Shown: positions 5,241 through 33,484 of the stretch, one piece after another
Numbering within the stretch: the first letter of the stretch is position 1
Layout: each line of letters starts with the position of its first letter
NCBI GenBank assembly: GCA_035546615.1
Contig: DASZWM010000005.1
Location: 1-64,000 of the forward strand
Length of the DNA: 64,000 bases
Direction of reading: 5' to 3'
Source of the DNA: Minisyncoccota bacterium
Lineage (GTDB): Bacteria > Patescibacteriota > Minisyncoccia > Phycocordibacterales > SBAW01
Notes under the pieces: generated by a model
Database searches by the model: none
The model's input: only the letters and a program-made list of their open reading frames with translations
Told to the model about the DNA's origin: nothing
Program-made: the position numbers and the translations under genes

Positions 5241-6029
5241 ATGCTTAAGAAAAAGTCCCTGGGGCAGCACTTTTTAACCTCGCAGCACTATGTGGGGATG
5301 ATAGCGGATGCGGCAAACATAGCGCCAAATGAGACCGTGCTTGAAATAGGCCCCGGCGAAGGCGCGCTCACGCGCGAGCTTTTGGCGCGCGGGGCAAACG
5401 TTGTCGCCATAGAAAAAGACCGCCGGCTCATACCCGTGCTTCAGGAAACATTTGCAAAAGAAATAGCGGAAGAGAGACTCCTCCTCATCGAGGCAGATGT
5501 GCTTGAGTTTGATCCTGCGAATGTGCCCGGAGCGGGGCCGTACAAGCTCGTCGCGAACATTCCGTACTACATCACCGGCGCAATACTCGAAAAGTTCCTT
5601 TCTGCAAAACGCCAGCCGCAAAGCGCGACGCTCTTGGTGCAGAAGGAGGTTGCCGAGCGCATCGCGCGCGAGAAGAAAGAGTCCATACTTTCGCTGTCGG
5701 TCAAAGCCTACGGCGCTCCGAAGTATATAAAGACTGTTCCCGCAGGAGCATTTTCGCCGCCACCCTCGGTAGACTCGGCTATTCTTGCCGTCGAGGAGAT
5801 ATCGCGCAAGAACTTTTCTGACGAAGCGCACGAAAAAAGGTTTTTCGAGCTTGTGCATGCCGGATTCGCGCACAAGCGCAAGCTTCTTGCGAGCAATCTT
5901 GAAAGCACTCTTGGCGCGGGAGGGCAGACTGTGCTTGAACGCGTCGGCATACCGGAAAAAGCGCGAGCGGAAGATATTGAGCTTACACGCTGGGTGCGTC
6001 TGTCATGCCTGGGGGAGCAGGAGGGCTGA
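5241..6029 (+). CDS. rsmA: 16S rRNA (adenine1518/1519-N6)-dimethyltransferase.
   Basis: N-terminus KKSLGQHFL and SAM motif VLEIGPGEGALT are diagnostic of KsgA/RsmA. Starts 2 nt after the helicase stop. Confidence 0.9.
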   Translation: MLKKKSLGQHFLTSQHYVGMIADAANIAPNETVLEIGPGEGALTRELLARGANVVAIEKDRRLIPVLQETFAKEIAEERLLLIEADVLEFDPANVPGAGPYKLVANIPYYITGAILEKFLSAKRQPQSATLLVQKEVAERIAREKKESILSLSVKAYGAPKYIKTVPAGAFSPPPSVDSAILAVEEISRKNFSDEAHEKRFFELVHAGFAHKRKLLASNLESTLGAGGQTVLERVGIPEKARAEDIELTRWVRLSCLGEQEG

Positions 6030-6408
6030 ATCCCACGAACGTCATCCTCGTTGCGGGCACGAAGCTGAAAATGCTGAACCACAATACTGTTCGCACAAGG
6101 CTCTGGCATACGACCGGAGCGTCCGCAAAACCGAGCGCCTGCCCGCCAGGGAGGGGGATCGGCATAAGGGGCGACTGCACCAGCGTAAAAGGCGGGGTGT
6201 ACAAATAATCCTGGGGTTTTCCGAACGTCTCCGTGCGGCTGCTGATGAGCGACACCAGGAGGGAGCCGGGCGGGAAGGTGCACGGCTCTATCTTCGTTAT
6301 CCTTCCGCCGAAGGAGCCCGGCAGGCCGGGGAGCGCAAAGGCGGTCGCGGGCGAAAACAATATCGAAATAGCGAACAAAACGGCGGGAATAGCGAATAGT
6401 CTCTTCAT
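5983..6408 (-). CDS. Small secreted hypothetical protein (141 aa) with a cleavable-looking signal peptide.
   Basis: ATG at 6408..6406 gives MKRLFAIPAVLFAISILFSPATAFA followed by non-repetitive, non-Arg-rich sequence (…ITKIEPCTFPPGSLLVSL…CQSLVRTVLWFSIF…). The longer 457-aa frame upstream of it is Arg-rich antisense of the 6454-7344 gene. An AT-rich stretch lies immediately 5' (6409-6440). The 3' end overlaps rsmA by 47 nt on the opposite strand. Confidence 0.45.
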   Translation of the reverse strand: MKRLFAIPAVLFAISILFSPATAFALPGLPGSFGGRITKIEPCTFPPGSLLVSLISSRTETFGKPQDYLYTPPFTLVQSPLMPIPLPGGQALGFADAPVVCQSLVRTVLWFSIFSFVPATRMTFVGFSPPAPPGMTDAPSV

Positions 6409-6453
6409 ATATACAGTATAGCCCGAAAAATCCCTGCTATACTTTAAGGTACG

Positions 6454-7344
6454 ATGAACGCGCTTCGGTATCTCCCAAGTACGCAGTTTTTGGTCATTGT
6501 CGGCTCGATTCTTCTCTCCGGCGGACTGGTGCTCGCGGCAGAGCGATTTACGCGCGATCAATATATTCCGGGGAAAATAATGAGCGGTGTGCCCGCCCAG
6601 CCGCCGGCAGACCCGAACTGGCAGAATACGCTCAACTCCATACAGGGCGTGAGCCAGGCGCCGGACCTGACGCCGCCTAATCCGGAAACGGTCGGAAGCC
6701 TGCTGGATGCGGCTAAAAGCTCCAACCTTACGACCACGGTCGGCCGCTCGCTCCTTATAAACATATCCGCCGCCAAGTCGCAGGGGCTCGGAAGCGATAT
6801 TCCGACCCAGGACCAGGTCGTAGCGCAGGCGCGGGCGCAGATAGAAAGCACCCAGAGCGCGCCGCAGTATAAAAACGCCGACCTCGCCCTTTCTGCGCAG
6901 AATGCCGCAGCGCTTAAAGCCTATGGGAACGGCGTTATTGCCGTGCTGGCCGCGCACCCGAAAGCGAATTACGAGGATACGGTGGTGGCGGTAGGGAAGG
7001 CGACCGACTCCAACACGGCATCCGCATTGGCGGCCCTTCCGGGCATACAGGCCGAATACAAGGCCGTCGTACGCGAGCTTCTTGCACTGCCGGTGCCGCC
7101 CAATATGGCGCCGCTTCACCTGAAGGTGGTGAACGACTTCAGCATCCTCGCCGCCTCCTATGACGACATGGCCCAGACGCTGAGCGATCCGCTCCGGGGA
7201 GTGGCGGGGCTCAGCATCTACGACTCGACTACGGATGAAATCGGGCGAGTGTTCATAAATATCGCGCAGACATTCAGCCAAAACGGTATACTTTTCACTG
7301 AAGACGAGCCCGGAAGCTCCTGGAGCGCGCTCGTGCAGTCCTGA
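6454..7344 (+). CDS. Hypothetical membrane-anchored protein (N-terminal TM, extracytoplasmic Ala/Ser-rich domain).
   Basis: 296-aa ORF. TM segment FLVIVGSILLSGGLVLAA. Protein-like composition. Immediately precedes the T4SS-like cluster. Confidence 0.5.
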   Translation: MNALRYLPSTQFLVIVGSILLSGGLVLAAERFTRDQYIPGKIMSGVPAQPPADPNWQNTLNSIQGVSQAPDLTPPNPETVGSLLDAAKSSNLTTTVGRSLLINISAAKSQGLGSDIPTQDQVVAQARAQIESTQSAPQYKNADLALSAQNAAALKAYGNGVIAVLAAHPKANYEDTVVAVGKATDSNTASALAALPGIQAEYKAVVRELLALPVPPNMAPLHLKVVNDFSILAASYDDMAQTLSDPLRGVAGLSIYDSTTDEIGRVFINIAQTFSQNGILFTEDEPGSSWSALVQS

Positions 7345-7349
7345 TCGGC

Positions 7350-9191
7350 ATGACAAAAAGAATCCTGTACATAATTATCGGCTCGGCGCTCATACTCGTG
7401 CTGATTTTGGGCCTGTGGTTCTGGTTCTTTACGCGCGGCGGCTCGCAAGCGGCCAACCCTTCGGGGCTTTTCGGCACGAGCGGGGACGCGACGAACGCCG
7501 GCGCGGGAGCGGGAGATGACCAGGGCAACGGGCAGGCGCCCATCGGCCAGAACGCCTCGCAGGATACGGGGGGAGATATTTCATACATACCCCCGGCTTC
7601 AAACAGCAGCGCCGTATGGCTTGACGGCTCCGGCGCGGGCGGAGGCGGCGGAGGTGGAGGCGGCGGAGGCGGGGGAGGAACAGGCGGAGGAGGGGGCTCC
7701 GGCGGAGGCGGCGGGACGGGCGTGTTCTTTACCCCGACGCCTATCAACTCTTTCAACAGCTTCAACCCGGGCGGCACCGTATATATCGCGGCTCCGCAGG
7801 GCGGGGCGGGCGGCGGCTCCAGCCTTGTTAGCGGGCTTTTGGGCGTGGCCGGCGGCTGCGCGGCGAATTTTTTGCTCAGCAAGGCGGCCGGAGCGGGGGC
7901 CGGGCTTGCGGACCGCGCGCTTGGAATACTAAAAGTACAGGTAACCGACAGCTCAACGCATGACAATCAGGCGGCACAGGCGATAATCGACTGCATCGTG
8001 CGCGGTCTGGCCCGCGCCGCGATACAGCAGATAACCAACGACACCATCAACTGGATAAATTCCGGCTTCGACGGCAAACCGGCGTTCGTGCAGGATTTCA
8101 ACAAGTTCTTCAGCAACGTGGCCGACACCGCCGCAGGCAGCGTCATCCAGGGCGGCGACCTCGCGTTCCTCTGCAGCCCGTTCCAGCTCAAGGTGCGCAT
8201 CGCCATCGCGCAAAGTTACGCGCGCAAGTCCTCAGGGCCGTCATGCACTCTTACGCAAGTAGTGGGCAACGTGGAGAATTTCGTCAACGGCAATTTCGCC
8301 GAGGGCGGTTGGCCCGGGTTCCTGGAGTTCACGACCGAGCCGACCAATAACCCGTTCGGCGCATATATGTACGGCCAGCTCCTGGTCAACGGACGCATCG
8401 CCCAGGATACACGCGACGCCGAGCGCAAGATATCGCCCGGCGGCTTCCTGGCTCAGCAGAAGTGCGACCTAGACGCCAATGGCACCAATATTCAAGAGAC
8501 CTGCAAAGTGGTGACGCCCGGTTCGGTCATAGAGGACGAGCTCAGCCAGGCGACCAAGGCGAACTTGGACGGCCTACAGCTCGCCGACAGCATCGACGAC
8601 ATACTCAACGCTCTCATAAACGCAGTCGTCAACAAAGTGCTCTACCAGGGGCTTGCCAATATCGGCGGCAACGGCAGCGGCGCACTTGAAGGCTCGCAGG
8701 ACACGGTGGCGACCCAGCAGGCAAACGCGCTTCTTACCGAGGTGCAGAACCGCGTTACCGATACGCAAACCTATGCCAGCACCGAGCAGGGAAGCGTTGC
8801 CGACGTGCAGGCGGCGCAGGAGAACCTCAATACCCTTCAAAACTGCTGGCTTGGAAGCAACTCAACCAAGGCAAAAGGCAAGGCGGGCGACGCGGATAGC
8901 AAGATAGCGGACCTTGAGGCTCAGGTAACGCTGCACAATAACCGGATAACGTCGGCAAACAGCGTCATCGTGTCGCTGCAGGACATCCAGACGAAGCTGC
9001 TTAATTCCTCGACCATGTCCGACGTGCAGGCGGTTACGGCCGAGTACAATGCGCTCAAAGCGGGCGGCACCCTTATCACCTCGGCGCAGGTAACTTCGGC
9101 CCAGCAGGATCGCACGACGCTCCAGGCGCAGCTCAGCGGCGTCAATACCAATACCCAGAATGAACTTCAGCAATGTTATGCGGCAAGCTAG
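7350..9191 (+). CDS. Membrane-anchored Gly-rich envelope protein, first gene of the T4SS-like cluster. Has an N-terminal TM, a poly-Gly tract of about 30 residues, and a C-terminal coiled-coil-like Q/T/A-rich region.
   Basis: TM segment ILYIIIGSALILVLILGLWFWFF. The G tract GGGGGGGGGGGGGGTGGGGGSGGGGGTG is encoded by a GGN nucleotide repeat at approx 7630-7727. The C-terminal region has heptad-like periodicity. Its stop overlaps the next gene. Confidence 0.6.
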   Translation: MTKRILYIIIGSALILVLILGLWFWFFTRGGSQAANPSGLFGTSGDATNAGAGAGDDQGNGQAPIGQNASQDTGGDISYIPPASNSSAVWLDGSGAGGGGGGGGGGGGGGTGGGGGSGGGGGTGVFFTPTPINSFNSFNPGGTVYIAAPQGGAGGGSSLVSGLLGVAGGCAANFLLSKAAGAGAGLADRALGILKVQVTDSSTHDNQAAQAIIDCIVRGLARAAIQQITNDTINWINSGFDGKPAFVQDFNKFFSNVADTAAGSVIQGGDLAFLCSPFQLKVRIAIAQSYARKSSGPSCTLTQVVGNVENFVNGNFAEGGWPGFLEFTTEPTNNPFGAYMYGQLLVNGRIAQDTRDAERKISPGGFLAQQKCDLDANGTNIQETCKVVTPGSVIEDELSQATKANLDGLQLADSIDDILNALINAVVNKVLYQGLANIGGNGSGALEGSQDTVATQQANALLTEVQNRVTDTQTYASTEQGSVADVQAAQENLNTLQNCWLGSNSTKAKGKAGDADSKIADLEAQVTLHNNRITSANSVIVSLQDIQTKLLNSSTMSDVQAVTAEYNALKAGGTLITSAQVTSAQQDRTTLQAQLSGVNTNTQNELQQCYAAS

Positions 9192-11328
9192 CGGGGTGAA
9201 AAGCACTCTTCTGCGCCATGGCATGAAAGCCGCGGCGCTTTTGGTCGTGACAGTGCTAGTATTTTCTCCGCTAACTGAGCTTTTCCAGTCTTCTACAGCA
9301 TACGCAGCCGTAGGTGGAAACGCGGGACAACAAGAGGCATCTCGAGCACGCAGTGCTTGCGAAAGCGCAAACGCAGCGAACCACACAAATAATGATTGTA
9401 CTAAAGCAGCTAATGATGCGGCAGCAGCAGTCACTAACGGCGATGGCGGCACGGTATTTAACGCTATCGCTTCCTTTCTTGCGTATCCAATCTACATTTT
9501 CACTGTCGGACTTGGGGGGTTCGCTGCTTCTGTAGGCGGGTATCTTTTTAACGTTTCCATTTACCTTTCGCTCAGCAGCAGCGCATATGGGCTTGACTTT
9601 GTAACTGACGGCTGGGGTGCGGCTCGCGACCTGGCAAACATGTTCTTCATCCTCATCCTCATCTACATCGCTGTTACCGTCATGCTTGAGGCGGAAACGG
9701 GCCACACTATGAACGCGCTGGTACGGGTGCTGTTTATCGCGCTTATCATCAACTTCAGCTTCTTCGCAACGCGCGTAGTTATTGATGCAGGCAACTTTAC
9801 GGCGACCCAATTCTACAATCAGATAAAGGCGGTGGATAAAAATGGGCAACCTGAGGTTATTTTCGGCAGGAATGTAAAGGACCTAAGTGCGAGCGTCATG
9901 GGAGCGGTCGGGGCGCAGGACCTGATAGGCTCAAAGTCATTCGACGACTTCTCGAAAAGAAGCGGCGGATTCGGGGAATTCATAGTGCTTGTGGTCATTT
10001 ACCTTTTTCTCGGCGCGGCGTATTTCGTGCTTGCCGCTACCTTCGTTGCTACAGCAATCAAATTTATCATGCGTATCGCGGTACTATGGCTCACCATCGT
10101 CGCCTCGCCCTTGGCGCTGGTTGCGTATACCGTACCGAGCTTCGAAGGGCAGTTCAAAAGGTGGCAGGAAACTCTCATAAGCCATGCCTTCTTTCCTGTA
10201 GTATTTCTTTTTATATTCTGGCTGATAAGCATTTTTGCCGGCGGCTTAAACCTTTCCGAGTCCTTTACCAGCTACTTAAAGGTGACCGATCCGAACAGCG
10301 CTGCGAATGTTGGCAACGTATTCGGCCTCGTCTCTCTGGTCGGAAGCATTTGCATTAAACTCGGCTTCCTCGTAGCGCTCTTATATCTGGGACTGCGGGC
10401 CGCCGACCAGGTGGGGATTATGGGCGCGCAATGGGCTAATACTATGGGAAACAAGCTTTCTTTCGGCACGATAGGCTTTGCCGGCAGGAATACTGTTGGA
10501 CGCCTCGGGCTTGGGCTTTCGCGCAATGAGGGACTCCGCGATTGGGCATCCAAGAGCGCGGTCGGAAGTGCAGCATTGCGCGGGGCAGGCTTGTTAAGCA
10601 GAGGAAGCTTCGACTTGCGAAGCCTGCCCGGCGCTGGCAAGCTTAAGGGCCAGATAGGGGAGGCGGGTGGCAAGGGCGGTATTGCAAAATGGGAAGAAGA
10701 GCGCGATAAGAAGCGCGAACATAGGATTGAGGAGCTCGGCAAAGCTATAAAGGGCGACATAAAGAATGAGCGCATTGAGCAGGAAAAGTTCATAGCGAAA
10801 TATGAGCGGGATCACGGCGCTGGAAGTTATCAAAAAGACGTAGAGGAAATCTCTAAGAAGATTAGCGGCAGGGAAAAAGAGGCTAAAGCTTTGCGAGAGC
10901 AGGCAAAAACCGCTCCAGAAGCTCTCAGAAACCAGCTTCATAAGGATGCAAAAGTAATTGATGAGGACGTAAAGAACATTAAAAAAGATCTGACGGAAAT
11001 GACAGAGGCTGGCAAGAGTACGGTAAAACATACTAACCACGAGCGTTCAGAAGTACTTGCGGCTCGATTGTCCAACAAATGGAATGCGTTCCTTACCACT
11101 CCCTCCAGAGGAACTCTCAAGGGCATCGCGCACCTGACACACCACGAAAGCAAAGAGGAGAAATTGGCGAAGGCCGCAAAAGACTTTGCGAAGGACGATG
11201 AAGGCGGTGGGCACACTCCTCCGGCAGCTACTCCTCCCCCCGTAACACCTGCGCCTGATTCCGCGCCCCCAAGCGGCCACGCTCCTAAACCTGATGCTCC
11301 AGCAGGTGAACACCGCGCAGACCACTAA
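9178..11328 (+). CDS. VirB6/TrbL-like polytopic membrane protein. It has at least 6 TM helices, a charged Lys/Glu-rich cytoplasmic segment and a Pro-rich tail.
   Basis: Signal-like N-terminus followed by multiple long hydrophobic helices (e.g. FFILILIYIAVTVML, VLFIALIINFSFF, FIVLVVIYLFLGAAYFVLAATFVA, VLWLTIVASPLALVAY). The KWEEERDKKREHRIEELGK charged block and its position in the cluster are typical of TrbL/VirB6-family topology. Start taken at the internal ATG 9178; the longest ORF starts at 9160. Confidence 0.5.
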   Translation: MRQASGVKSTLLRHGMKAAALLVVTVLVFSPLTELFQSSTAYAAVGGNAGQQEASRARSACESANAANHTNNDCTKAANDAAAAVTNGDGGTVFNAIASFLAYPIYIFTVGLGGFAASVGGYLFNVSIYLSLSSSAYGLDFVTDGWGAARDLANMFFILILIYIAVTVMLEAETGHTMNALVRVLFIALIINFSFFATRVVIDAGNFTATQFYNQIKAVDKNGQPEVIFGRNVKDLSASVMGAVGAQDLIGSKSFDDFSKRSGGFGEFIVLVVIYLFLGAAYFVLAATFVATAIKFIMRIAVLWLTIVASPLALVAYTVPSFEGQFKRWQETLISHAFFPVVFLFIFWLISIFAGGLNLSESFTSYLKVTDPNSAANVGNVFGLVSLVGSICIKLGFLVALLYLGLRAADQVGIMGAQWANTMGNKLSFGTIGFAGRNTVGRLGLGLSRNEGLRDWASKSAVGSAALRGAGLLSRGSFDLRSLPGAGKLKGQIGEAGGKGGIAKWEEERDKKREHRIEELGKAIKGDIKNERIEQEKFIAKYERDHGAGSYQKDVEEISKKISGREKEAKALREQAKTAPEALRNQLHKDAKVIDEDVKNIKKDLTEMTEAGKSTVKHTNHERSEVLAARLSNKWNAFLTTPSRGTLKGIAHLTHHESKEEKLAKAAKDFAKDDEGGGHTPPAATPPPVTPAPDSAPPSGHAPKPDAPAGEHRADH

Positions 11329-11349
11329 TAACGAGTTAAAATAGATTAT

Positions 11350-12060
11350 ATGCCGGAACAAGATACTGCAAAACAAATCGAGGAACGGATAGCTCAGCTC
11401 CCTGTCGACGTACAAGAAGCCGTACTAGCAAGCGACTTCGATGAAAAAGTACTTGCGATAGGAAAATCCCATAACCTCCACATAGACCAATCCCAACTCC
11501 TAGGCAACGAGATATATATGGTTATGCTCGGAATGAGCGATACGGCAGACTTTGTTAATTCTATAGAGAAAGAAGTGCGGGTATCTAAGGAAGAAGCAGA
11601 AAAAATCGCAACGGATGTGAACGCGAAGATATTGGCCCCTATACGCGAATCCTTAAAAAGAATGTACGAGCAGGAGGGAGAAGCTCCTGCACCGACGGTC
11701 CCCTCATCCATGCCTTCGACGAGCCAAAAGTCCGTGGTTATGCCCTCAAGTGTGGCCGCCGCGAAGGCTGCCGTGCCTCAGGCTCCGGCGATGGCTGTTC
11801 CTGCTAAGCCCATTCCTCCGGTTTCGGTGCCGGTTCCTGCCGCTCCCATGCCTGTCCCAGCCACGCCTGCAACTCCGATAACGTCTATGATGCCGAAACC
11901 TCCTGCCGCAACGCCCGATTTACGTTCTGCTGAGCGTGTACTTACCGAAAAGACGGTCCAGGTGCCGGTTCCAACCCCTCCCCAGGTAGCATCGAGCTCG
12001 ACAGTACCCGCAAAACCCGGCGCATATAAGGCCGATCCGTATCGCGAGCCGATAGAATAA
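11350..12060 (+). CDS. Hypothetical Pro-rich protein of the T4SS-like cluster.
   Basis: 236 aa. The N-terminal 100 aa are ordinary. The C-terminal half is a PxP-rich low-complexity region (PAKPIPPVSVPVPAAPMPVPATPATP). No TM segment. Confidence 0.45.
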   Translation: MPEQDTAKQIEERIAQLPVDVQEAVLASDFDEKVLAIGKSHNLHIDQSQLLGNEIYMVMLGMSDTADFVNSIEKEVRVSKEEAEKIATDVNAKILAPIRESLKRMYEQEGEAPAPTVPSSMPSTSQKSVVMPSSVAAAKAAVPQAPAMAVPAKPIPPVSVPVPAAPMPVPATPATPITSMMPKPPAATPDLRSAERVLTEKTVQVPVPTPPQVASSSTVPAKPGAYKADPYREPIE

Positions 12061-12141
12061 CCGCTAAAGGCCTCTTACAAGTGCACCCCGAGAGTACTTG
12101 GATTTTCTAAGGCACAGGAGTCCCAAGAAAATCTCGGCGCG

Positions 12142-12612
12142 ATGTTATACTGGATAGCGATGCGCTATCAGGTCCCTCAATTCATAGAAATAGAAGACAA
12201 GATATTCGGACCGCTTACCTTAAAGCAGTTCATCTATCTGGCCGGAGGCGGCGGCTTGTGCCTTATCTTCTTTTCGCTCTTGCCCCTCTACCTTACCTTC
12301 ATACTATCCATCCCGGTCATCGTATTCGCCGCCGCGCTTGCCTTCTACCAGGTAAACGGCCGGCCGTTCATCGTGGTGCTCGAGCACGCCTTCGGCTACA
12401 TGTTCGGCCATAAGCTCTACCTCTGGAAGCAGCGGGAGGCAAAGACTCAGGCCGCCGCCGCGGAAGCGGCCGCCGCAAATGCCGCGCCCGCGCTTGGCGT
12501 GCCAAAGCTCTCGGAGAGCAGGCTGAAGGACCTTGCATGGTCGCTCAATATAAAGGACCGGGCCAAGATGGGGGTTTCCGATACCGGCGCCCGGACAGGA
12601 TTCGAAATCTGA
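12142..12612 (+). CDS. VirB3/PrgI-like small 2-TM protein.
   Basis: 156 aa. Two adjacent TM helices (FIYLAGGGGLCLIFFSLLPLYLTFILSIPVIVFAAALAF). Lies immediately upstream of the VirB4 ATPase, as VirB3/PrgI does in known T4SS. Confidence 0.5.
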   Translation: MLYWIAMRYQVPQFIEIEDKIFGPLTLKQFIYLAGGGGLCLIFFSLLPLYLTFILSIPVIVFAAALAFYQVNGRPFIVVLEHAFGYMFGHKLYLWKQREAKTQAAAAEAAAANAAPALGVPKLSESRLKDLAWSLNIKDRAKMGVSDTGARTGFEI

Positions 12613-12613
12613 T

Positions 12614-13282
12614 ATGGCTGAAGCACAAGTAAAAGCGCAGGCGACCCAGGAATTCGTACCCATCAAGGAGGTGCGCGACGGCATCGTCATACTCAAGGAC
12701 GGCAGCCTCCGCTCGCTCCTTATGGCCTCCTCCATAAACCTGGCGCTTAAAAGCAATGACGAGCAGGAAGCGACCATCGGCCAGTTCCAGAACTTCCTCA
12801 ACTCGCTGGAGTTCTCCGTGCAATTCTTCATACAGAGCCGCGACTTGGACGTCCGGCCTTACATCGCCCTCCTTGAGGAGCGCTACGCGCTCGAGCTCGA
12901 CGACCTTATGAAGATTCAGATCCGCGAATACATCGCCTTCATCAAGGACTTTACCGAGCGCGCGAACATCATGACGAAGAACTTTTTCATCGTGGTGCCG
13001 TATGACCCGGCTATCATCTCCCGGGGCGGCGGGGCGGCGATGATAGGGAACCTATTCCCGACCGGAGGGGGCGCGTCCGCGGCGGCGCTTACCGACGCGC
13101 AGTTCGAGCAGTACCGCACCCAGCTGGAGCAGCGCATCAGCGTTATAGAGCAGGGGCTCGTGCGCACCGGCGTGCGCGTCGTAAAGCTCGGGACCGAGGA
13201 GGTAATAGAGCTCTTCTACAAGCTCTTCAACCCCGGCGAGCTCGAAAAGCCTTTACAGGTAACGCAAATTGCCAAGGCATAA
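12614..13282 (+). CDS. N-terminal segment of a VirB4/TrbE-family ATPase, encoded as a separate ORF (222 aa).
   Basis: FVPIKEVRDGIVILKDGSLRSLLMASSINLALKSNDEQ matches the characteristic start of the VirB4 N-terminal domain (…YLPYIGHLSDHIVLLEDGSIMSIARIDGVAFELEE in A. tumefaciens VirB4). The stop is at 13280-13282, 7 nt before the ATG of the ATPase body, in a different frame. Confidence 0.6.
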   Translation: MAEAQVKAQATQEFVPIKEVRDGIVILKDGSLRSLLMASSINLALKSNDEQEATIGQFQNFLNSLEFSVQFFIQSRDLDVRPYIALLEERYALELDDLMKIQIREYIAFIKDFTERANIMTKNFFIVVPYDPAIISRGGGAAMIGNLFPTGGGASAAALTDAQFEQYRTQLEQRISVIEQGLVRTGVRVVKLGTEEVIELFYKLFNPGELEKPLQVTQIAKA

Positions 13283-13289
13283 TATACGT

Positions 13290-15107
13290 ATGGCATTCCT
13301 CGACTTCTTAAAATCAAAACCCAGCAACGTCTCGGCTCCGATGGCGCCCATACTTCCGGAAGCCATCTACAAGCAGGGAATACTCGAGCTCCAGGACGTC
13401 ATCGCCCCTTCGGCACTGAAGATAACGCCGCGCGAAATAAACCTCGGCGACAAGATAGCGCGCACGTTCTTCGTGATGTCCTACCCGCGCGTCCTCACCG
13501 ACTCGTGGTTCGCGCCGGTCATCAACCTCGACCGCGTGCTCGACGTTTCCATATTCATACACCCCATAGACTCCGCCGACATCCTTAAAAAGTTCCAAAA
13601 GAAGGTGGCCGAGGTACAAAGCCAGATAATGACCCGCGAGCAGAAGGGGATGGTGCGCGACCCGATGCTCGACACCGCCTACCGCGACCTTGAGGACCTG
13701 CGCGACCAGCTCCAGCAGGCGCAGGAGCGCATTTTTGACGTAGGCGTCTACATCACCATCTACGGCAAGACCGTGGAGGAACTCGATAAGACCGAAAGCG
13801 AAATAAAGTCCATGCTCGAATCGCGCCTCGTATACGTGAAGCCGGCGCTCTTCCAGCAGGAACAGGGCTTCAAGTCGGTGCTGCCGCTGGGTCATGACGT
13901 GCTCGGCGTGAACTCCAAGCTCAACTCTTCTCCCTTATCGTCCATCTTCCCGTTCGTGTCGTTCGACCTCACGTCCGACCGCGGCATACTCTACGGCGTT
14001 AACCGCCACAACGCCTCGCTCGTGCTGTTTGACCGCTTCTCTCTTGAGAACTACAACTCCGTTATCTTCGCGAAGTCCGGCTCCGGCAAGTCGTACGCCA
14101 CCAAGCTCGAAATATTGCGTACCCTCATGTTCGATACCGAGGTCATCGTCATCGACCCGGAACGCGAATATGAATTCCTCTCGCAAGCGGTCGGCGGGCG
14201 CTACTTCAACATCTCTCTTAACTCCGAGCACCACATCAACCCGTTCGACCTGGCCCCGCCCAGGGAAGACGAGTCACCGGCCGATATTCTGCGCTCCAAC
14301 ATCGTAGCGCTTGTGGGCATGTTCCGCATCATGCTCGGCGGCCTCAGCCCCGAGGAGGACGCCATTATGGACAAGGCGATAACGGAGACGTACGCGCTCA
14401 AGGATATTACGGTTGACTCCGACTTCAGCCAGATAGAGCCGCCGCTTCTGTCGGACTTCGAGCTGGTACTCGCCGGGATGGAGGGCTCTGAGTCGCTCGT
14501 ACAGCGCCTGTCCAAGTACACCAAGGGCACGTGGTCAGGATTCATCAACCAGGCGACCAACGTGGACATCAACAAGAAGTTCGTCGTGTTCTCCGTGCGC
14601 GACATGGAAGACGACCTCAAGCCTGTTGCAATGTACCTCATTACGCACTACATCTGGAACGCGGTGCGCAAGAATCTCAAGAAGCGCCTGCTCGTCATCG
14701 ACGAGGCATGGTGGATGATGAAGTCGGAGGATACCGCGAGCTTTCTGTACTCCATGGCGAAGCGCGGCCGAAAATATTACCTGGGCCTTGCAACCATTAC
14801 GCAGGACGTGGACGACTTCCTGAAGTCTCCGTACGGGCTGCCTATGATAACCAACTCCTCGCTTCAGCTGCTTCTCAAGCAATCGCCCACGACCATCGAC
14901 AACCTGCAGAAGACCTTCAACCTATCCGACGAGGAGAAATTCCTGCTGCTGGAGTCCGATGTAGGGGAGGGAATATTCTTCGCCGGCATGAAGCACGTAG
15001 CCATCAAAGTCATCGCTTCCTATACAGAAGACCAGATAATCACTTCCGACCCGAGCCAGGTGCTTGCCTTGCGCAAGCAGAAGGCCGACGCCCAATCACA
15101 GACATGA
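13290..15107 (+). CDS. virB4: VirB4/TraC/TrbE-family T4SS ATPase (central and C-terminal ATPase domains).
   Basis: Walker A FAKSGSGKSY, Walker B LLVIDEAWWMM and the TITQDVDDF motif. The N-terminal part (REINLGDKIARTFFVMSYPRVLTDSWFAPVINLDRVLDVSIFIHP) aligns with the VirB4 middle domain. Start taken at ATG 13290; the ORF track starts at TTG 13269. Confidence 0.85.
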   Translation: MAFLDFLKSKPSNVSAPMAPILPEAIYKQGILELQDVIAPSALKITPREINLGDKIARTFFVMSYPRVLTDSWFAPVINLDRVLDVSIFIHPIDSADILKKFQKKVAEVQSQIMTREQKGMVRDPMLDTAYRDLEDLRDQLQQAQERIFDVGVYITIYGKTVEELDKTESEIKSMLESRLVYVKPALFQQEQGFKSVLPLGHDVLGVNSKLNSSPLSSIFPFVSFDLTSDRGILYGVNRHNASLVLFDRFSLENYNSVIFAKSGSGKSYATKLEILRTLMFDTEVIVIDPEREYEFLSQAVGGRYFNISLNSEHHINPFDLAPPREDESPADILRSNIVALVGMFRIMLGGLSPEEDAIMDKAITETYALKDITVDSDFSQIEPPLLSDFELVLAGMEGSESLVQRLSKYTKGTWSGFINQATNVDINKKFVVFSVRDMEDDLKPVAMYLITHYIWNAVRKNLKKRLLVIDEAWWMMKSEDTASFLYSMAKRGRKYYLGLATITQDVDDFLKSPYGLPMITNSSLQLLLKQSPTTIDNLQKTFNLSDEEKFLLLESDVGEGIFFAGMKHVAIKVIASYTEDQIITSDPSQVLALRKQKADAQSQT

Positions 15108-16882
15108 TCCGGGGAATGCTGCTTATAACGCTGGCGCTTTTCATAGACATGCTACAGGCGGGCATTTCGCTTGCCATTGCATTGCTTGCGGCAGTGCCCG
15201 GCACGGCGATAGGCGCGGCGGGGGGGGCGGTGGCGGGCGCGTCGCTGTGCAGCTACGTTGGGCTGGGCGCGATCTCAGGATGGTGCTCGGCGATAGGGGG
15301 GTTTGCGGTCGGCTTCTTCGCCACGCCGCTCAACGCCTTGGCTGTTGTCACGGAGCCTGTCGGCATAGCCGTAGGGTTCGCCATAAACATGTGCCTCAGC
15401 ATCTGCCTCGGCGCCTTCCTGCTCATGCTCATGGCTTTTTTCCTTAAGAAGATATATGTAAAAAATCTCTTCTTCGGACTCGGAGAAATGATACCGGGCA
15501 TAAACAATATCCCGTTCTGGACCGCATTCGTCGTGGTATCCTTGCTTAAAAAGAGCGCGGAGGACGGCACGGGCGCGCTCTCGGGCATGGCGGCCGTAGC
15601 CACGACGGCCATGTCGCCCGGAAGCGCATTGGGCAACGCAGCCGGCGGAATTATGAGAGCAAAAGAAAAGACAACTGAGATAGCGGATCGGACAAAAGCT
15701 TTTTCGAGCCCGCTCATGCTCCAGCCGCTTAAAGGCTACAAACAACAGCAGGACAACTTGGGAGACCATCTGAATCAGGAGCAAATAAATCCCGGTAGTA
15801 CGCCCCGGGAAAGTGCATCCGCACAGGCGGCACGCAATATTTTCAATGATATCCGGCCTATCCGGAAAGCGGCGGCTGTTCTTCTCGCTTTTGCACTTTT
15901 CGGCGCAGGCGTGCAGGCGGCATACGCGCAGGCAGTAGACCCCTTGCGATTCGTTATCACGCCTGAAATCCCCACCCCGGGAGCGCAGGTAGCCATAGAA
16001 GCACAGGGCGTCGGGAACTTCCTCGGCGACGCGACCTTCACCTGGCAGCAGGACGGTAAGACCGTATTGACCGGAATGGGTGAGCGCAGGCTTACTTTCA
16101 CTGTAGGGAATGTCGGCGCCGCGACCCGCATACACGTGACAATTCAGTCTCCGACCAACGGTACGATAGACCGCGACTTCACGCTGGTGCCGAGCGTTGT
16201 GCATCTTTTGTGGGAGGCGGACACGTCCGTTCCGCCTCTCTATCGCGGTAAGGCGCTCTACAGCGCCGGCTCGACGTTCAGGGTGATAGCGCTGCCGCAG
16301 GTAGTCGCGGGCGGAGCAACCATCACTTACAACAACCTTTCATTCCAGTGGAGCCTCAACGGCGAGCCGGCGGTGAATCAATCGGGGAAGGGGCGCTCAT
16401 CGGCGGCATTCCAAGGAAGCCAACTGCGTGCCTCGGAAAACGTCAGCGTCGATGTGTATCTTGGAGCCCAGGCCGTGGGCCGTGCGAGCATTACTATCCC
16501 GGCAGTGGACCCGGAGCTGTCGCTCTATATACAGGACCCTCTGCGCGGCACGCTGTATGATCAGGCGATGCCCGCTACTATCTCTCTTCTGAATACAGAA
16601 GTGACCCTCAAGGCAGAGCCGTTCTATTTTTCAAACGACAGCATCAGAAACGGAGCCGCTGCGTATACTTGGACCTTAAATGGAACACCTGCTACCGGCC
16701 CTGATTCGGCGCGGGGCATATTGACATTGCGTCAGACCGGAAACGGCGGCGGGGAAGGGCGGCTCGGAGTAGAGCTTCAGAATACCGACCCGACCAGGTT
16801 CGTGCAGGCGGCCCGCGCTGCGCTGCGAATCCTCTTTAACGGTACGGCAAATTCCAATACCACATCGTCATTCGGCGTATGA
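15104..16882 (+). CDS. Polytopic membrane protein with a large C-terminal extracytoplasmic beta-rich domain (T4SS-like cluster, function unknown).
   Basis: ATG at 15104 overlaps the VirB4 stop (ATGA). The ORF-track start at 14531 is out-of-frame read-through of virB4. It has 4-5 N-terminal TM helices and an additional hydrophobic segment AAAVLLAFALFGAGVQAAYA. This is followed by a Thr/Ser/Gly-rich region of about 330 aa with beta-strand character. Confidence 0.55.
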   Translation: MIRGMLLITLALFIDMLQAGISLAIALLAAVPGTAIGAAGGAVAGASLCSYVGLGAISGWCSAIGGFAVGFFATPLNALAVVTEPVGIAVGFAINMCLSICLGAFLLMLMAFFLKKIYVKNLFFGLGEMIPGINNIPFWTAFVVVSLLKKSAEDGTGALSGMAAVATTAMSPGSALGNAAGGIMRAKEKTTEIADRTKAFSSPLMLQPLKGYKQQQDNLGDHLNQEQINPGSTPRESASAQAARNIFNDIRPIRKAAAVLLAFALFGAGVQAAYAQAVDPLRFVITPEIPTPGAQVAIEAQGVGNFLGDATFTWQQDGKTVLTGMGERRLTFTVGNVGAATRIHVTIQSPTNGTIDRDFTLVPSVVHLLWEADTSVPPLYRGKALYSAGSTFRVIALPQVVAGGATITYNNLSFQWSLNGEPAVNQSGKGRSSAAFQGSQLRASENVSVDVYLGAQAVGRASITIPAVDPELSLYIQDPLRGTLYDQAMPATISLLNTEVTLKAEPFYFSNDSIRNGAAAYTWTLNGTPATGPDSARGILTLRQTGNGGGEGRLGVELQNTDPTRFVQAARAALRILFNGTANSNTTSSFGV

Positions 16883-17529
16883 AAAAGACCTTCTATCTCT
16901 ACATATCGCTCATAGGGTTTGTGCTGGCGCTTTCGTTTGCCGGGAGCGTTTTGGCGCAGAACAAGCCGGGGTTTTCGTGTACGGGTCCCGGCGGTACAAA
17001 CTGCCAGTATGTTCCGCTCGAACCGCTATCAAACATGGACGAAGGCGGCAACACGACCATGGCGACGTTCATCAACTCGCTCTTCAAGATACTATTCTCC
17101 CTCAGCGCGCTTTTTGCCGTAGCGATGCTTACGATGGGAGGGATTGAATACATGATTTCGGACGTGGCGGAGCGCAAGAACGAAGGTATACGGCGTGCGA
17201 CGGCAGCCCTGTACGGCATTCTGATACTCGCCGGTTCGTATCTACTCCTGTATACGATAAATCCGCAGCTGCTGAACTTTGATCTTACATTCAAGCAGAT
17301 AGGGAGCACGGGAGCAGGGGCGCAAACAGGACAATCCGGGGTCGGGAATGCTCCTCAATCTGAGACTGAAATCACAGGACCTCAAGGAGGAGTAATATAC
17401 GATTCCGACTCGCTTTCTGTTCAGGCCAAGGCGCTCAATCAAATCAACACGTACTGCAAGGGAAAGGTCGAAAAGACCCGAGGAACAGACTCGATTGGTG
17501 ATTATACAGAGTACTCATGCGTAAAATAA
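16879..17529 (+). CDS. Pilin-like protein (VirB2/TrbC-like topology): signal peptide plus two central TM helices.
   Basis: ATGA overlap with the upstream gene. MKKTFYLYISLIGFVLALSFAGSVLAQ is a signal peptide. The mature protein has two hydrophobic helices (LFKILFSLSALFAVAMLTMGG; AALYGILILAGSYLLLYTI) separated by a short charged loop, as in T4SS pilins. The functional call is topology-based only. Confidence 0.35.
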   Translation: MKKTFYLYISLIGFVLALSFAGSVLAQNKPGFSCTGPGGTNCQYVPLEPLSNMDEGGNTTMATFINSLFKILFSLSALFAVAMLTMGGIEYMISDVAERKNEGIRRATAALYGILILAGSYLLLYTINPQLLNFDLTFKQIGSTGAGAQTGQSGVGNAPQSETEITGPQGGVIYDSDSLSVQAKALNQINTYCKGKVEKTRGTDSIGDYTEYSCVK

Positions 17530-17541
17530 ACGAAAGATTGT

Positions 17542-18771
17542 ATGGATAATCAAAGAGCAATATACACACTATCCGGAGTGGTCGGAGTCCTGATATTTGC
17601 CCTTGCAGGATGGTTTTTCCTTATCCGATCTCCTTCAAATTCAAATGTGCAGATTAATTCCGGGTTTGGAATAGGTGACAGCAGGACGGTTGCCGTACCC
17701 GCACAGAGTGGCTCAGATACCGACAATCAGACGGTTACCACTGCGCCGCAGCAGGCCGCGCAGAAGATATTCAAAATTTCTGACGGGCCGGTAACCACCG
17801 CAACACTCGTGCAGACTTCGTACCCGACGACGACCATGGCGCGATTCGTGCTGCAGGAGAATGGGCACGCATTTGACCTCGTTCTCGACAGCGCCGGCGC
17901 CATACCACGCGCGCTTTCCAACACCACTATCCCGGGCGCCATGCGCGGCATATGGGCGGATGGCGGCTGGTCGGCGATACTTCAGTACTTGGACGCAGGT
18001 GTCGTTAAAAGCGTGTTTCTCGGCTTTCCGGCTGCCACGACTACCGGCTCGGCGCCGGTGCGGATAAAATTCCTCCCGGACAATATAGGCGATGTCGCGG
18101 CATCGCCCAGCGGGAAGAATATCGTGTATATCGTACCAAATGCCGCCGGCTCGGACGCATATCTTACGAAGCCCGACGGCACGGACGGCAAAAAGCTGTT
18201 CTCGCTCCCCATGAAAGAGCTTCTGATATCCTGGCCCGCAGCAAATACGCAGCTGCTATGGACCAAGAGCGACAGCGGCGTTGCCGGAGCGGCATTTTCT
18301 GTAAATGCTTCTACCGGCGGGGTAGTGCCGCTGCTGTACGCGCCGGGCCTAACCGTAAATGCCGACCGCTTGTTTGTGCATGTTGTATATCAGAACACTA
18401 CAGTAAGTGGCGCGTCTTCATTTGTACATGATATGGGAACAGGAAATGATACAGCTATATCGTTTGATCCGATTCCTGAGAAATGCATCTGGAGCAATAT
18501 CGCTACTACTACTATGTACTGCGCGGTACCGCTTGCATACGCGTCTACAAACTACCTCGACTTATGGCATCAAGGCGCTGCATCTATGGAAGATTCCATC
18601 CTTTCCTTTAACGTAGAGAGTGGGACTAGCAATGTCGTTACAGTTCCAGGAGGAGAGGAAGGCGGAGTGGCTACAGACATCGCGGAGATGGCCGTGTCGC
18701 AGGATGACCGCTACCTGGTATTCATCAAAAAAGGCGACCGCTCCCTGTGGGGCGTTCGCCTGACGCAGTAG
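17542..18771 (+). CDS. Membrane-anchored extracytoplasmic protein, possibly beta-propeller (TolB/PD40-like repeats). Last gene of the T4SS-like cluster.
   Basis: N-terminal TM LSGVVGVLIFALAGWFFLI. Repeats resembling PD40 signatures (KPDGTDGKKLF; SQDDRYLVFIKKGDRSLWGV). 409 aa. Confidence 0.5.
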   Translation: MDNQRAIYTLSGVVGVLIFALAGWFFLIRSPSNSNVQINSGFGIGDSRTVAVPAQSGSDTDNQTVTTAPQQAAQKIFKISDGPVTTATLVQTSYPTTTMARFVLQENGHAFDLVLDSAGAIPRALSNTTIPGAMRGIWADGGWSAILQYLDAGVVKSVFLGFPAATTTGSAPVRIKFLPDNIGDVAASPSGKNIVYIVPNAAGSDAYLTKPDGTDGKKLFSLPMKELLISWPAANTQLLWTKSDSGVAGAAFSVNASTGGVVPLLYAPGLTVNADRLFVHVVYQNTTVSGASSFVHDMGTGNDTAISFDPIPEKCIWSNIATTTMYCAVPLAYASTNYLDLWHQGAASMEDSILSFNVESGTSNVVTVPGGEEGGVATDIAEMAVSQDDRYLVFIKKGDRSLWGVRLTQ

Positions 18772-18780
18772 TTTTTAAAA

Positions 18781-19242
18781 TTACGCCTTCGAGCCTTCCT
18801 TGTACTTAAGGACGATGTGGCGGAATTTTCCTTCCCCCTGGGACTCCGTCTTTATTTCCGGATCTTCCGAGAACAGCTCGTGCACCACCAGGCGCTCGTA
18901 CGCGCTCATGGGGCCGAGCTCTACGTCATGCTTGAAAAGCCGCGCGCGCTGGGCCAGCATAGAGGCATTGGCGCGCACCGCATCCATCTTTTCCTCGTAA
19001 AAGCGGTTGACGTCGATCAAGAAGCTCGCGGCCTCCTCACCGTATTTCGCCTCCACCAGGCGCTTCGCCACGGTATTGAGCGCGCGAAGGTGGTCGCCAT
19101 CCGGCCCGATGAGCTCCTTGGCGTCGGGAGAGGCAATAGCCACGACCGTGCGGTGGCCGGTCGATATGTCGAGACTGGTGACCTCTGCGCCGAGCAAGCC
19201 GATGAAGGAAGTCATAAAATCTTTCAGAGCGGCGGCATCCAT
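18781..19242 (-). CDS. khpB: KhpB/Jag-type RNA-binding protein (KH + R3H domains).
   Basis: Lies downstream of yidC as in the conserved rpmH-rnpA-yidC-jag operon. R3H-like C-terminus (…LGPMSAYERLVVHELFSEDPEIKTESQGEG…). Start taken at internal ATG 19242. Confidence 0.75.
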   Translation of the reverse strand: MDAAALKDFMTSFIGLLGAEVTSLDISTGHRTVVAIASPDAKELIGPDGDHLRALNTVAKRLVEAKYGEEAASFLIDVNRFYEEKMDAVRANASMLAQRARLFKHDVELGPMSAYERLVVHELFSEDPEIKTESQGEGKFRHIVLKYKEGSKA

Positions 19243-19304
19243 AAAGACACAATACCCCAGCGGGCGGGGCAGACGCAACTTTGAGAGTTTTTACGGCCTC
19301 CGGA

Positions 19305-20024
19305 TTAGTCTTTTCGGCTCAGCTGGCGCTTGATGACCAGCTCCTGGCCAAGCGACACAAGGTTGCCGGCGGCAAAATAGAGCCCAACGGCCGCCGGAAG
19401 CGAGTAGGAGACAACGCCCATCAGGACCGGCAGGAAGTACAGCATCATCTGGCGCTGCATGCGGTGGGCCGCCTGGCGCTCTTTAGGCAGGTTTGCGGCC
19501 CCGGGGGCGGTGCGCGCCATGGAAAGGTGCGCCACGCCGTACTGGAGGCCCGCCACGACGATGCTGAGCGCGATATTATGCGGCTGCATAAGCTCGAGAA
19601 GCCCAAAAAAGCTTATATCCACGACCGCCGGCACGTGCACGAAGGGGTAGAGGAGCTCGCTTGCCACGTGCGGCAACCCTTCGCGGAACAGGGCGAAGTA
19701 GAGGGCTAAAAATACCGGTATCTGGACAAGAAGCGCCAGGAACCCGGCGAACGGGTGGATATCCTTTTCCTTATAGAGCGCCATGGTGGCGCGGGCGCGG
19801 GCCTCCGAATCGTCCTTGTATTTCTTATTTATCTCGTCTATTTCCCCCTGCGCAGCCTGCATGCCCATTTGGGTCTTTATGGAGGCGGCAAAAGCCGGGT
19901 AGAACACGATGCGGGTTATAAGTGTCAGGGCGATGATGGCAAGGCCGACATCGCCCCCCGGCATGACGCCGATGAGGTAGATAAACCCGTTATAGAGGGG
20001 CTTTATGAGCAGTGTTTCAAACAT
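19305..20024 (-). CDS. yidC: Membrane protein insertase YidC/Oxa1 family (short, monoderm-type).
   Basis: Five TM helices. Conserved YidC segments (LLIKPLYNGFIYL; PFAGFLALLVQIPVFLALYFAL; MMLYFLPVLMGVVSYSLPAAVGLYF). Operon position matches. Confidence 0.85.
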   Translation of the reverse strand: MFETLLIKPLYNGFIYLIGVMPGGDVGLAIIALTLITRIVFYPAFAASIKTQMGMQAAQGEIDEINKKYKDDSEARARATMALYKEKDIHPFAGFLALLVQIPVFLALYFALFREGLPHVASELLYPFVHVPAVVDISFFGLLELMQPHNIALSIVVAGLQYGVAHLSMARTAPGAANLPKERQAAHRMQRQMMLYFLPVLMGVVSYSLPAAVGLYFAAGNLVSLGQELVIKRQLSRKD

Positions 20025-20331
20025 GTAATAGCTTTTTTAGGTCCTCTGCGAAGGCGGCTGCGGCGTTTTGAGGGGGCGCGGACAGTATAAACAGTACCAT
20101 GTGGCCGCTCTGGGGCAGAACAGCCCCCTGAAGAGCCCGATAGACCGCCCGCCTCAGGCTGTTGCGCCTGACCGCGCTTTTGGCAACCTTCTTGGAAACG
20201 ACGACCGCGCAGGCAAACGGACCTTGTTTTTCAATGTTTTTTGAGGAAAGCACCTCTCCCCGGCGGCCCCGCCCCCGGGCGATGACCTCCCGCACTTCGG
20301 CTGCGCTCAGGCGCCGGCGCTTGGGGAGCAT
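20017..20331 (-). CDS. rnpA: Ribonuclease P protein component.
   Basis: Basic 104-aa protein (LPKRRRLSAAEVREV…SKKVAKSAVRRNSLRR…). Located between rpmH and yidC. Confidence 0.85.
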   Translation of the reverse strand: MLPKRRRLSAAEVREVIARGRGRRGEVLSSKNIEKQGPFACAVVVSKKVAKSAVRRNSLRRAVYRALQGAVLPQSGHMVLFILSAPPQNAAAAFAEDLKKLLHV

Positions 20332-23215: not shown

Positions 23216-23219
23216 AAAA

Positions 23220-33462: not shown

Positions 33463-33484
33463 GCATATATTGTACACTAGCTCT

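Follow-up and report, generated by a model that had tools for sequence, protein, structure and literature searches.

We describe ten closely spaced genes on the + strand of a 64-kb stretch of DNA (positions 1 to 64,000 of contig DASZWM010000005.1, hereafter the window) from a genome of the Paceibacteria (Parcubacteria), ultrasmall bacteria that belong to the Candidate Phyla Radiation (CPR). The genes, labeled G0 to G9 in order, span positions 6454-18771. They very probably constitute a type IV secretion system (T4SS) that is chromosomal and vertically inherited, belongs to the “Patescibacteria clade” and goes back to the monoderm MPF_FATA conjugation machinery. The cluster encodes a VirB6-like protein, PrgI/VirB3, a motor split into TrsD and VirB4 and one VirB2-like pilin. 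In addition, it encodes five lineage-specific proteins. Three of them are bitopic with an ectodomain, one is a fusion protein, and one is a cytoplasmic protein rich in proline. Such systems were already published in 2023-2025, and the cluster in the window is a further instance, not a new kind. An initial annotation of the same DNA had interpreted the cluster as monoderm-type, non-conjugative machinery of the sort reported in CPR bacteria, which matches the published view (Quinonero-Coronel et al. 2025, Microb Genom 11:001409, PMC12102498; Wang et al. 2023, Cell, PMC10633639).

Core secretion genes

Protein families were assigned with Pfam and NCBIfam profiles, whose bit scores we read against the curated cut-offs. 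Transmembrane (TM) segments and topology come from hydropathy and, for G1, G2, G4, G8 and G9, are in line with the initial annotation. GTDB species representatives were scanned with the window's VirB4, yielding at least 587 relatives, and the loci of the best 80 (L001-L080) were compared with the window.

The gene G6 (13290-15107) encodes the VirB4 ATPase, or more exactly its C-terminal motor part. The best curated family is CD1110 of NCBIfam, an MPF_FATA prototype (E=5.2e-116, 388.7 bits versus a cut-off of 325, model positions 185-734). The protein also matches the Pfam family P-loop_TraG (E=5e-26, 91.6 bits versus 25.8), and its translation contains the Walker A sequence AKSGSGKS and the Walker B sequence LLVIDE. 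By contrast, its score for TIGR00929 VirB4_CagE is 129.6 bits, versus a cut-off of 643. The assignment of this VirB4 to the Patescibacteria clade is by proxy, based on the taxonomy of the nearest relatives and the best curated family rather than on a tree.

The N-terminal domain of VirB4 is present as its own gene, G5 (12614-13282). The encoded TrsD-like protein matches the NCBIfam family TrsD/TraD (E=1e-9, 38.5 bits), below that family's strict cut-off of 200. It aligns with residues 100-233 of the Mbov_0397 VirB4 and residues 2-115 of the CD1110 VirB4 in NCBIfam, and has no TM segment. In the related loci examined, the TrsD-like open reading frame (ORF) likewise stands apart, directly upstream of the ATPase gene, and we found no fusion among them. 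A frameshifted or pseudogenized VirB4 was considered as an explanation of the split and ruled out, given that the two-gene form with an intervening stop occurs in the related loci examined. One apparent TrsD-VirB4 fusion of 838 amino acids, in L016, has an in-frame stop inside.

G4 (12142-12612), upstream of the VirB4 unit, encodes a PrgI/VirB3-like protein with two TM segments. It matches PF12666 (PrgI; E=2.9e-11, 44.2 bits versus a cut-off of 27), has its TM hairpin at residues 29-73 and is 44-81% identical across 76 loci. G8 (16879-17529) had previously been described only as having pilin-like topology, and is recognized by PF18895 (T4SS_pilin; E=2.9e-8, 34.1 bits versus 26.6) as a VirB2-like T4SS pilin. 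The protein consists of a signal peptide, two hydrophobic helices with a basic loop between them and a C-terminal extension of roughly 90 amino acids. A VirB2-like pilin is unusual for a monoderm T4SS. No further pilin gene was detected in a six-frame translation of the window, where a profile hidden Markov model (HMM) built from orthologues finds only G8.

G2 (9160-11328) encodes a polytopic membrane protein with a signal or TM segment, about six TM segments and a C-terminal tail that is long and charged (“extended VirB6”). This topology, with at least six TM segments, fits VirB6/TrbL. The window's protein has no match to Pfam TrbL at E<=0.1, and its match to the NCBIfam CD3337/EF1877 mobilome membrane protein is weak (E=0.005, 15.6 bits versus a cut-off of 120). 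Among 46 syntenic orthologues, seven match TrbL (PF04610), with a best E-value of 6.5e-7.

The profile searches thus gave matches above the cut-offs for the VirB4, PrgI and pilin families. The initial annotation had listed nine same-strand genes from 7350 onward, with three recognizable components (VirB4, a VirB3/PrgI-like protein and a VirB6/TrbL-like protein) and six envelope proteins. All nine ORFs are present, and the three identifications held, that of VirB6 indirectly. However, five families are recognizable instead of three when the TrsD-like protein and the pilin are included, and two of the supposed envelope proteins, those of 11350-12060 (G3) and 12614-13282 (G5), have no TM segment. 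The cluster also starts earlier, at 6454. Its tenth gene, G0 (6454-7344), lies 5 nt upstream of 7350 and is syntenic with the other nine in related genomes.

The genes had been said to overlap by 1-14 nt. This is correct for two 4-nt ATGA overlaps, at G6/G7 (15104-15107) and G7/G8 (16879-16882), but not for the other junctions. There are gaps of 5 nt (G0/G1), 21 nt (G2/G3), 81 nt (G3/G4), 1 nt (G4/G5) and 12 nt (G8/G9). G1 and G2 overlap by up to 32 nt if the longest ORF is assumed, and the true start of G2 may be an internal Met codon, at 9178 or 9223. The 14-nt overlap of G5 and G6 (13269-13282) requires that the ATPase gene use the TTG at 13269, where its longest ORF begins. The ATPase genes of most of the 80 related loci have an ATG start located 1-15 nt past the upstream stop. 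The counterpart in the window is the ATG at 13290, 7 nt past the G5 stop, and is likely the start of G6. All ORFs of the cluster are intact, and each has homologues conserved in dozens to hundreds of genomes, which indicates real genes and not chance ORFs. Scans of the cluster with promoter and terminator consensus sequences found sites no more numerous than in shuffled sequence.

Chromosomal setting and conservation

The cluster is flanked on both sides by housekeeping genes that occur in the same order in related loci. Upstream are a pcrA/uvrD-type helicase gene (3302-5239, +; Pfam UvrD-helicase) and rsmA/ksgA (5241-6029, +; RrnaAD). Downstream are jag (18781-19278, -; R3H), yidC (19305-20024, -; 60KD_IMP), rnpA (20017-20331, -; Ribonuclease_P), rpmH (20335-20469, -; Ribosomal_L34) and dnaA (20554-21909, +; Bac_DnaA), with dnaN next. 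The cluster is thus about 1.8 kb from dnaA, beside the replication origin. Its GC content is 0.53-0.61, the same as that of the flanks.

The best 80 of the VirB4 relatives are Patescibacteria without exception, with 76-94% identity, and are labeled Paceibacterota, Kaiser-, Adler-, Nomura-, Campbell-, Taylor-, Wolfe- and Zambryskibacteria. In 74 of the 80 loci, the order rsmA, G0-G9, jag, yidC, (rnpA, rpmH), dnaA is colinear. The remaining six (L032, L035, L043, L055, L063 and L069) have G8 and G9 swapped. The distance from rsmA to yidC is 10.9-17.7 kb in the 80 loci (median 13.9 kb), and 13.3 kb in the window. In the relatives, a span of this length could not also accommodate a relaxase together with a coupling protein.

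We scanned the window with Pfam for coupling proteins, relaxases and integrases, in ORFs of at least about 180 amino acids. None of these larger ORFs matches T4SS-DNA_transf, TraG-D_C or TrwB, the families of coupling proteins. Relaxases of the MOB families had no match in any scanned ORF, and no integrase was found among the larger ORFs; att sites were outside this search. The absence of VirD4 and relaxase reported in the initial annotation was thus reproduced for the window's larger ORFs.

The genes of the locus are conserved to very different degrees. Median identities to the window's proteins are 78% for VirB4, 62% for the TrsD-like G5, 55% for DnaA, 52% for RsmA, 51% for PrgI and 26-34% for the accessory genes. 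The identity of VirB4 surpasses that of DnaA in 58 of 59 genomes and that of PcrA in 38 of 38, a comparison biased by the choice of loci according to VirB4 similarity. The same choice affects the identity ranges, which are 76-94% for VirB4 versus 48-93% for DnaA, with VirB4 also above RsmA and YidC. Judged by these identities in VirB4-selected loci, VirB4 appears as the most conserved gene of the neighborhood, under stronger constraint than DnaA. Such conservation above DnaA is unusual for a secretion ATPase.

Several of the matched families belong to conjugative elements. The best families of VirB4 are CD1110 (CTn2) and Mbov_0397 of an integrative conjugative element (ICE), G5 matches TrsD of pGO1-type plasmids, and conjugative MPF_FATA systems typically have PrgI and VirB6-like genes. 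The cluster could be imagined as a fragment or decaying remnant of a Gram-positive-type ICE or plasmid, with the genes for VirD4, relaxase and integrase either gone or just beyond its ends. However, the setting between rsmA and jag-yidC-rnpA-rpmH-dnaA is uniform in 74 of 80 species. In the relatives, the cluster lies between housekeeping genes and not in a conjugative element. Moreover, the window's larger ORFs include no integrase, relaxase or coupling protein, the GC content reveals no compositional island, all ORFs are intact, and a VirB4 conserved above DnaA is the opposite of decay. Given the uniform chromosomal synteny, we regard a mobile-element remnant as effectively excluded.

Accessory proteins and neighboring genes

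The five accessory genes, G0, G1, G3, G7 and G9, make up about half of a conserved locus in the largest CPR class and encode proteins without a family assignment. Some of these proteins nonetheless have definable folds, namely a propeller, immunoglobulin (Ig) repeats and a helical bundle. Structures of G1 and G9 were predicted with AlphaFold2 (AF2) and compared with the PDB by Foldseek, and profile searches were run against PDB sequences. For G0, G1, G7 and G9, no VirB8-like or lytic-enzyme match was found with Pfam, NCBIfam or PDB profiles.

The propeller is that of G9 (17542-18771), which the initial annotation had called propeller-like. In the AF2 model, an N-terminal TM helix and a disordered linker precede an ectodomain that forms a seven-bladed beta-propeller with 27 strands in 7 blades. 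The mean predicted local distance difference test score (pLDDT) is 90.3, and the predicted template modeling score (pTM) is 0.81. Foldseek gave 966 PDB matches at E<=1e-3, the best at 5e-10, among them WD40, TolB, tricorn and oligogalacturonate lyase. The PDB profile search matched TolB (E=0.003). We considered a specific homology to TolB and dropped it, as WD40, tricorn, TolB and the lyases matched equally well, leaving a generic seven-bladed propeller. Some G9 homologues carry PF26549 in precomputed annotations. The G9 product is 100% identical to P0121 (NCBI VHD55_02215). An exact look-up of this product on contigs returned no record.

G7 (15104-16882) encodes a fusion protein. The initial annotation described it as polytopic with a large beta-rich ectodomain; its two modules are separate genes in close relatives. 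Residues 1-250 form a clade-specific polytopic module that occurs in the nearest relatives only, some with it as a gene of its own and others with it fused. The rest of the protein (residues about 250-592) comprises a TM anchor and three Ig-like repeats, and corresponds to a conserved gene of about 340 amino acids that follows virB4 in most related loci. According to tblastn, the modules are two ORFs in L001, L002, L004, L009, L012, L013 and L021 and are fused in L005, L006, L010 and L011, while more distant loci have the C-terminal module alone. Each repeat is about 105 amino acids long, and a W-x-x-N-G signature occurs at residues 68, 170 and 277. Weak PDB-profile matches to Hoc (E=0.007) and Ig domains, together with matches among the orthologues (BiPBP_C in 8 of 37, Ig_3 in 3 of 37 and PKD in some), suggest beta-sandwiches of the Ig-like, PKD or BiPBP_C type. 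The G7 product is 100% identical to P0241 (NCBI VHD55_02205).

G1 (7350-9191) encodes an N-terminal TM anchor and a poly-Gly linker, as the initial annotation had noted, followed by a helical core with Cys residues and a C-terminal four-helix bundle. The core has a strongly conserved motif, W-I-N-S-G-F-x-G-x-P-x-F-V. AF2 predicted the four-helix bundle very confidently but modeled the conserved core poorly, and the fold search found no structural match. The G1 family comprises 5,557 clusters at 50% identity with E<=1e-3, or 2,358 with E<=1e-30, and none of the 120 homologues listed has a Pfam domain or a name; a look-up of the clusters likewise gave no informative names. One distant family member, in a JGI metagenome contig (3300004210; L081), has additional Ig-like and F5/F8 type C domains. 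It is the sole distant G1 member that we placed in context, where the gene order is G1 member, VirB6-size, 226-aa, PrgI, PF26593 “TraC-like”, VirB4, 121-aa, 341-aa, pilin, 425-aa and jag. The architecture of this cluster is otherwise identical to that of the window's; its TrsD-like orthologue is the gene with the PF26593 TraC-like domain, in a precomputed annotation.

G0 encodes a bitopic membrane protein with an N-terminal TM segment (residues 9-32) and an ectodomain of about 260 amino acids. Syntenic homologues with 22-54% identity occur in 33 loci. The protein has no Pfam or NCBIfam match, and a profile search against PDB sequences found nothing below E=0.2.

G3 (11350-12060) encodes a soluble proline-rich protein. 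Its N-terminal domain, some 100 amino acids long, is conserved and is followed by a Pro-rich linker and the C-terminal sequence D-P-Y-R-E-P. The gene is syntenic in 55 loci, and Pfam, NCBIfam and PDB profiles gave no match. The D-P-Y-R-E-P end (around 12034-12057) is nearly invariant in 40 orthologues that are otherwise 22-56% identical. Some VirB4 orthologues (L030, L055 and L058) have Pro-rich C-terminal tails with loosely similar ends (...NPDRPA, ...NPDRLV and ...YHEPIEP). The end motifs of G3 and of these VirB4 tails might be a shared docking peptide.

The pilin, which is unusual in a monoderm T4SS, and three surface-exposed ectodomain proteins with folds typical of binding (Ig-like repeats, beta-propeller) invite the view that the cluster makes an adhesive pilus for host attachment and has no substrate channel. 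On the other hand, the putative VirB6 channel subunit is kept and conserved. Type IV pili for adhesion are also encoded, as indicated by a PilB-like T2SSE/MshEN ATPase, the type IV pilus motor, at 31780-33693 (-), within 15 kb downstream of the cluster, and such pili mediate host adhesion in Saccharibacteria. We therefore consider a purely adhesive pilus improbable.

A few other features of the window deserve mention. A LysM and M23 peptidase gene (1114-2223, -) is located 5 kb upstream of the cluster, and adjoins a gene (245-1093, +) whose TM-anchored product matches DUF1402 below the threshold. LysM/M23 proteins associated with virB4 in Paceibacteria have been taken as VirB1 analogues (PMC12102498). 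The apparent intergenic gap of 424 nt between rsmA and G0 holds an ORF of 141 amino acids (5983-6408, -) with a textbook signal peptide, MKRLFAIPAVLFAISILFSPATAFA. This ORF has no Pfam match, is conserved in place in none but the three nearest relatives (L001, L003 and L009; 35-37% identity), and is nested in a long, spurious-looking antisense ORF (5983-7356). The high GC content of the window produces many long spurious antisense ORFs, such as a poly-Pro ORF (7295-7966, -) opposite the poly-Gly linker of G1, and ORF lists of the window call for filtering by conservation. The lowest GC content, 0.485 compared to about 0.57 overall, is at 22001-24000, a region that spans dnaN and a gene for a trypsin-like serine protease (23220-24101). 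Further downstream are an ORF of 609 amino acids without a Pfam match (42132-43961, +) and a protein of 1,278 amino acids with an N-terminal Gly_rich_2 domain (PF21722; 45716-49552, +).

Possible function and relation to known systems

T4SSs of Patescibacteria belong to the small number of machines that CPR bacteria have been shown to require for their epibiotic lifestyle, here by transposon sequencing (Tn-seq) of Southlakia (PMC10633639). In the arrangement we propose for the window's cluster, the TrsD/VirB4 ATPase would dock on PrgI and VirB6 in a single membrane. There it would drive the extraction and polymerization of the VirB2-like pilin, giving a pilus or tube that could reach the surface of a host cell. 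The TM-anchored Ig-repeat, propeller and helical-bundle proteins might span the cell wall or contact the host, and may take the place of VirB8, VirB1 and adhesins, for which no counterparts were detected in the cluster. The lack of a relaxase or coupling protein in the cluster, together with its fixed, housekeeping-like locus, implies that the machine is not used for conjugation. It would instead serve an obligatory exchange with the host cell. In a 2026 preprint, a cultivated member of the phylum was described as feeding on host RNA, with tubular structures that are possibly T4SS pili (bioRxiv 10.64898/2026.06.21.733656). As to the substrate, import of host macromolecules, especially nucleic acid, has a chance somewhat short of even, and export of effector proteins a smaller one. 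Attachment only or some other role accounts for the remainder.

Import could take the form of a dedicated DNA-uptake (competence) machine, comparable to Helicobacter ComB or archaeal Ced, that takes in DNA from the environment or the host, as a source of nucleotides or for recombination. Patescibacteria lack nucleotide synthesis and import has been hypothesized for them, and comF, recG and radA are neighbors of the T4SS in class ABY1 (PMC12102498). The window's VirB4 also has a weak match to the NCBIfam CedB family (E=9e-10). However, this match scores 37.8 bits, far below the cut-off of 700, and reflects generic ATPase similarity; the CedD score is 17.1 bits versus a cut-off of 600. Pfam and NCBIfam detected none of the partner families CedA/CedA1/CedA2 and ComB2-ComB10 in the cluster, and Pfam scans found no competence genes adjoining it. 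In addition, transformation of Southlakia needs comEC, which is dispensable there, while the T4SS is essential (PMC10633639). Dedicated DNA uptake is therefore rather unlikely.

Alternatively, the machine could be an exporter that injects toxins or other effectors into the host bacterium to free nutrients, and does so without a coupling protein, as do Bordetella Ptl and Brucella VirB. Effector and toxin T4SSs that lack a coupling protein are known (PMC12102498), and the absence of a coupling protein and relaxase led Wang et al. to favor protein export or an alternative role (PMC10633639). A Fic/DOC-domain protein is encoded about 10 kb from the cluster (29273-30409, +). Yet there is no candidate effector in the cluster, where G3 is the only soluble non-ATPase product. 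We consider this explanation possible but doubtful.

A bolder version of import concerns the accessory proteins. G0, G1, G3, the Ig module of G7 and G9 might be true subunits in the structure of a monoderm T4SS whose architecture is new and which runs in reverse, as a feeding tube that imports host RNA or DNA. An Ig stalk, the propeller and the helical-bundle protein (possibly a VirB5-like factor of the pilus tip or base) would replace VirB8, VirB1 and adhesins. If true, such a tube would supply nucleic acid to a cell that is unable to make nucleotides. We put this idea forward as unlikely but not negligible.

Some considerations weigh against our interpretation of the cluster as a non-conjugative T4SS of the Patescibacteria clade. 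The 80 loci were picked by VirB4 similarity, which inflates VirB4 identities relative to an unbiased sample. The VirB6-like identity of G2 is indirect, via its orthologues, with the window's own protein scoring below the threshold. We infer a single operon from spacing and conserved order only, and conserved synteny is likewise the sole basis on which G0, G1, G3, G7 and G9 are taken as putative members of the machine. VirD4-like coupling protein homologues occur in most Patescibacteria genomes, far from virB4 (PMC12102498), and given that 64 kb were examined here, this genome might also have a distal coupling protein.

Of the well-studied systems, the Agrobacterium VirB/VirD4 system (MPF_T) shares the VirB2-type pilin topology with the window's locus, which also has equivalents of VirB3 and VirB4 and a VirB6-like protein. 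Unlike the Agrobacterium system, the window's locus has no VirB5, no VirB7-VirB10 outer-membrane core, no VirB11 and no VirD4, and belongs to a monoderm envelope.

G6 passes the equivalog cut-off of the CD1110 VirB4 of Clostridioides difficile CTn2, and the PrgI-family protein and the VirB6-like membrane protein, with its weak CD3337/EF1877 match, also recall CTn2 and the Prg/Pcf system of Enterococcus pCF10. These conjugative systems are mobile and lack a pilin. They also encode a relaxase, PcfC/VirD4, the hydrolase PrgK, PrgL (VirB8-like) and the adhesin PrgB, all of which went undetected in the window. The staphylococcal Trs (Tra) system of pGO1/pSK41 resembles the window in that a small TrsD, homologous to the N-terminus of VirB4, has its own gene, which immediately precedes that of the VirB4 ATPase and adjoins a VirB3-like gene. 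This system (TrsC-TrsD-TrsE) is the only classical MPF_FATA subclass with a separate TrsD (PMC12102498). However, pGO1, a conjugative plasmid, encodes a relaxase as well as a coupling protein. It lacks a VirB2-like pilin, and a VirB6 homologue is also absent (PMC12102498).

A 2025 FEMS review describes the T4SSs of Patescibacteria as a distinct newcomer to the superfamily. The T4SS of Southlakia epibionticum (SEML1_0006-0019) was found by Tn-seq to be essential for epibiotic growth, with pilins, PrgI and a TrsD-like gene in the essential set (PMC10633639). It has the same succession of VirB6-like, PrgI, TrsD-like and VirB4 genes followed by exported accessory proteins, as well as PF18895 pilins. 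It is also located at the chromosome start near dnaA, and its cluster includes neither a relaxase nor a coupling protein. An essential exported Ig-like (PEGA) protein, SEML1_0005, is encoded beside the cluster and is reminiscent of the C-terminal module of G7. No beta-propeller or G1-like protein appears among the supplement rows consulted, which cover part of the genes. Southlakia differs in having six tandem pilins and lysozyme or peptidase genes right after virB4, in contrast to one pilin and no hydrolase in the window's cluster; the nearest hydrolase is the LysM-M23 gene. Essentiality is established for Southlakia only.

The closest correspondence is to the systems surveyed in 3,035 Patescibacteria genomes (PMC12102498). 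That study found a monophyletic Patescibacteria VirB4 clade nested in MPF_FATA, with TrsD, PrgI/VirB3, VirB6 and VirB2-like (PF18895) pilins widespread near virB4. Relaxases were nearly absent and coupling protein homologues seldom near virB4, and in Paceibacteria virB4 was near dnaA, dnaN, ksgA, rnpA and rpmH. The window shares the gene set, including the adjacent TrsD gene and with VirB6 as a putative member, the lack of a relaxase or coupling protein beside virB4, the location, and nearest relatives (the best 80) that are exclusively Patescibacteria. Nothing substantive differs, although the window has a single pilin gene and not an array. What the window adds are genes left unannotated in the survey, encoding a seven-bladed propeller, a protein with three Ig repeats, a helical-bundle protein and a Pro-rich DPYREP protein, and a ranking of conservation by gene. 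This further instance is of value for these accessory genes, which are conserved but unannotated, and for a VirB4 that is constrained to an unusual degree.

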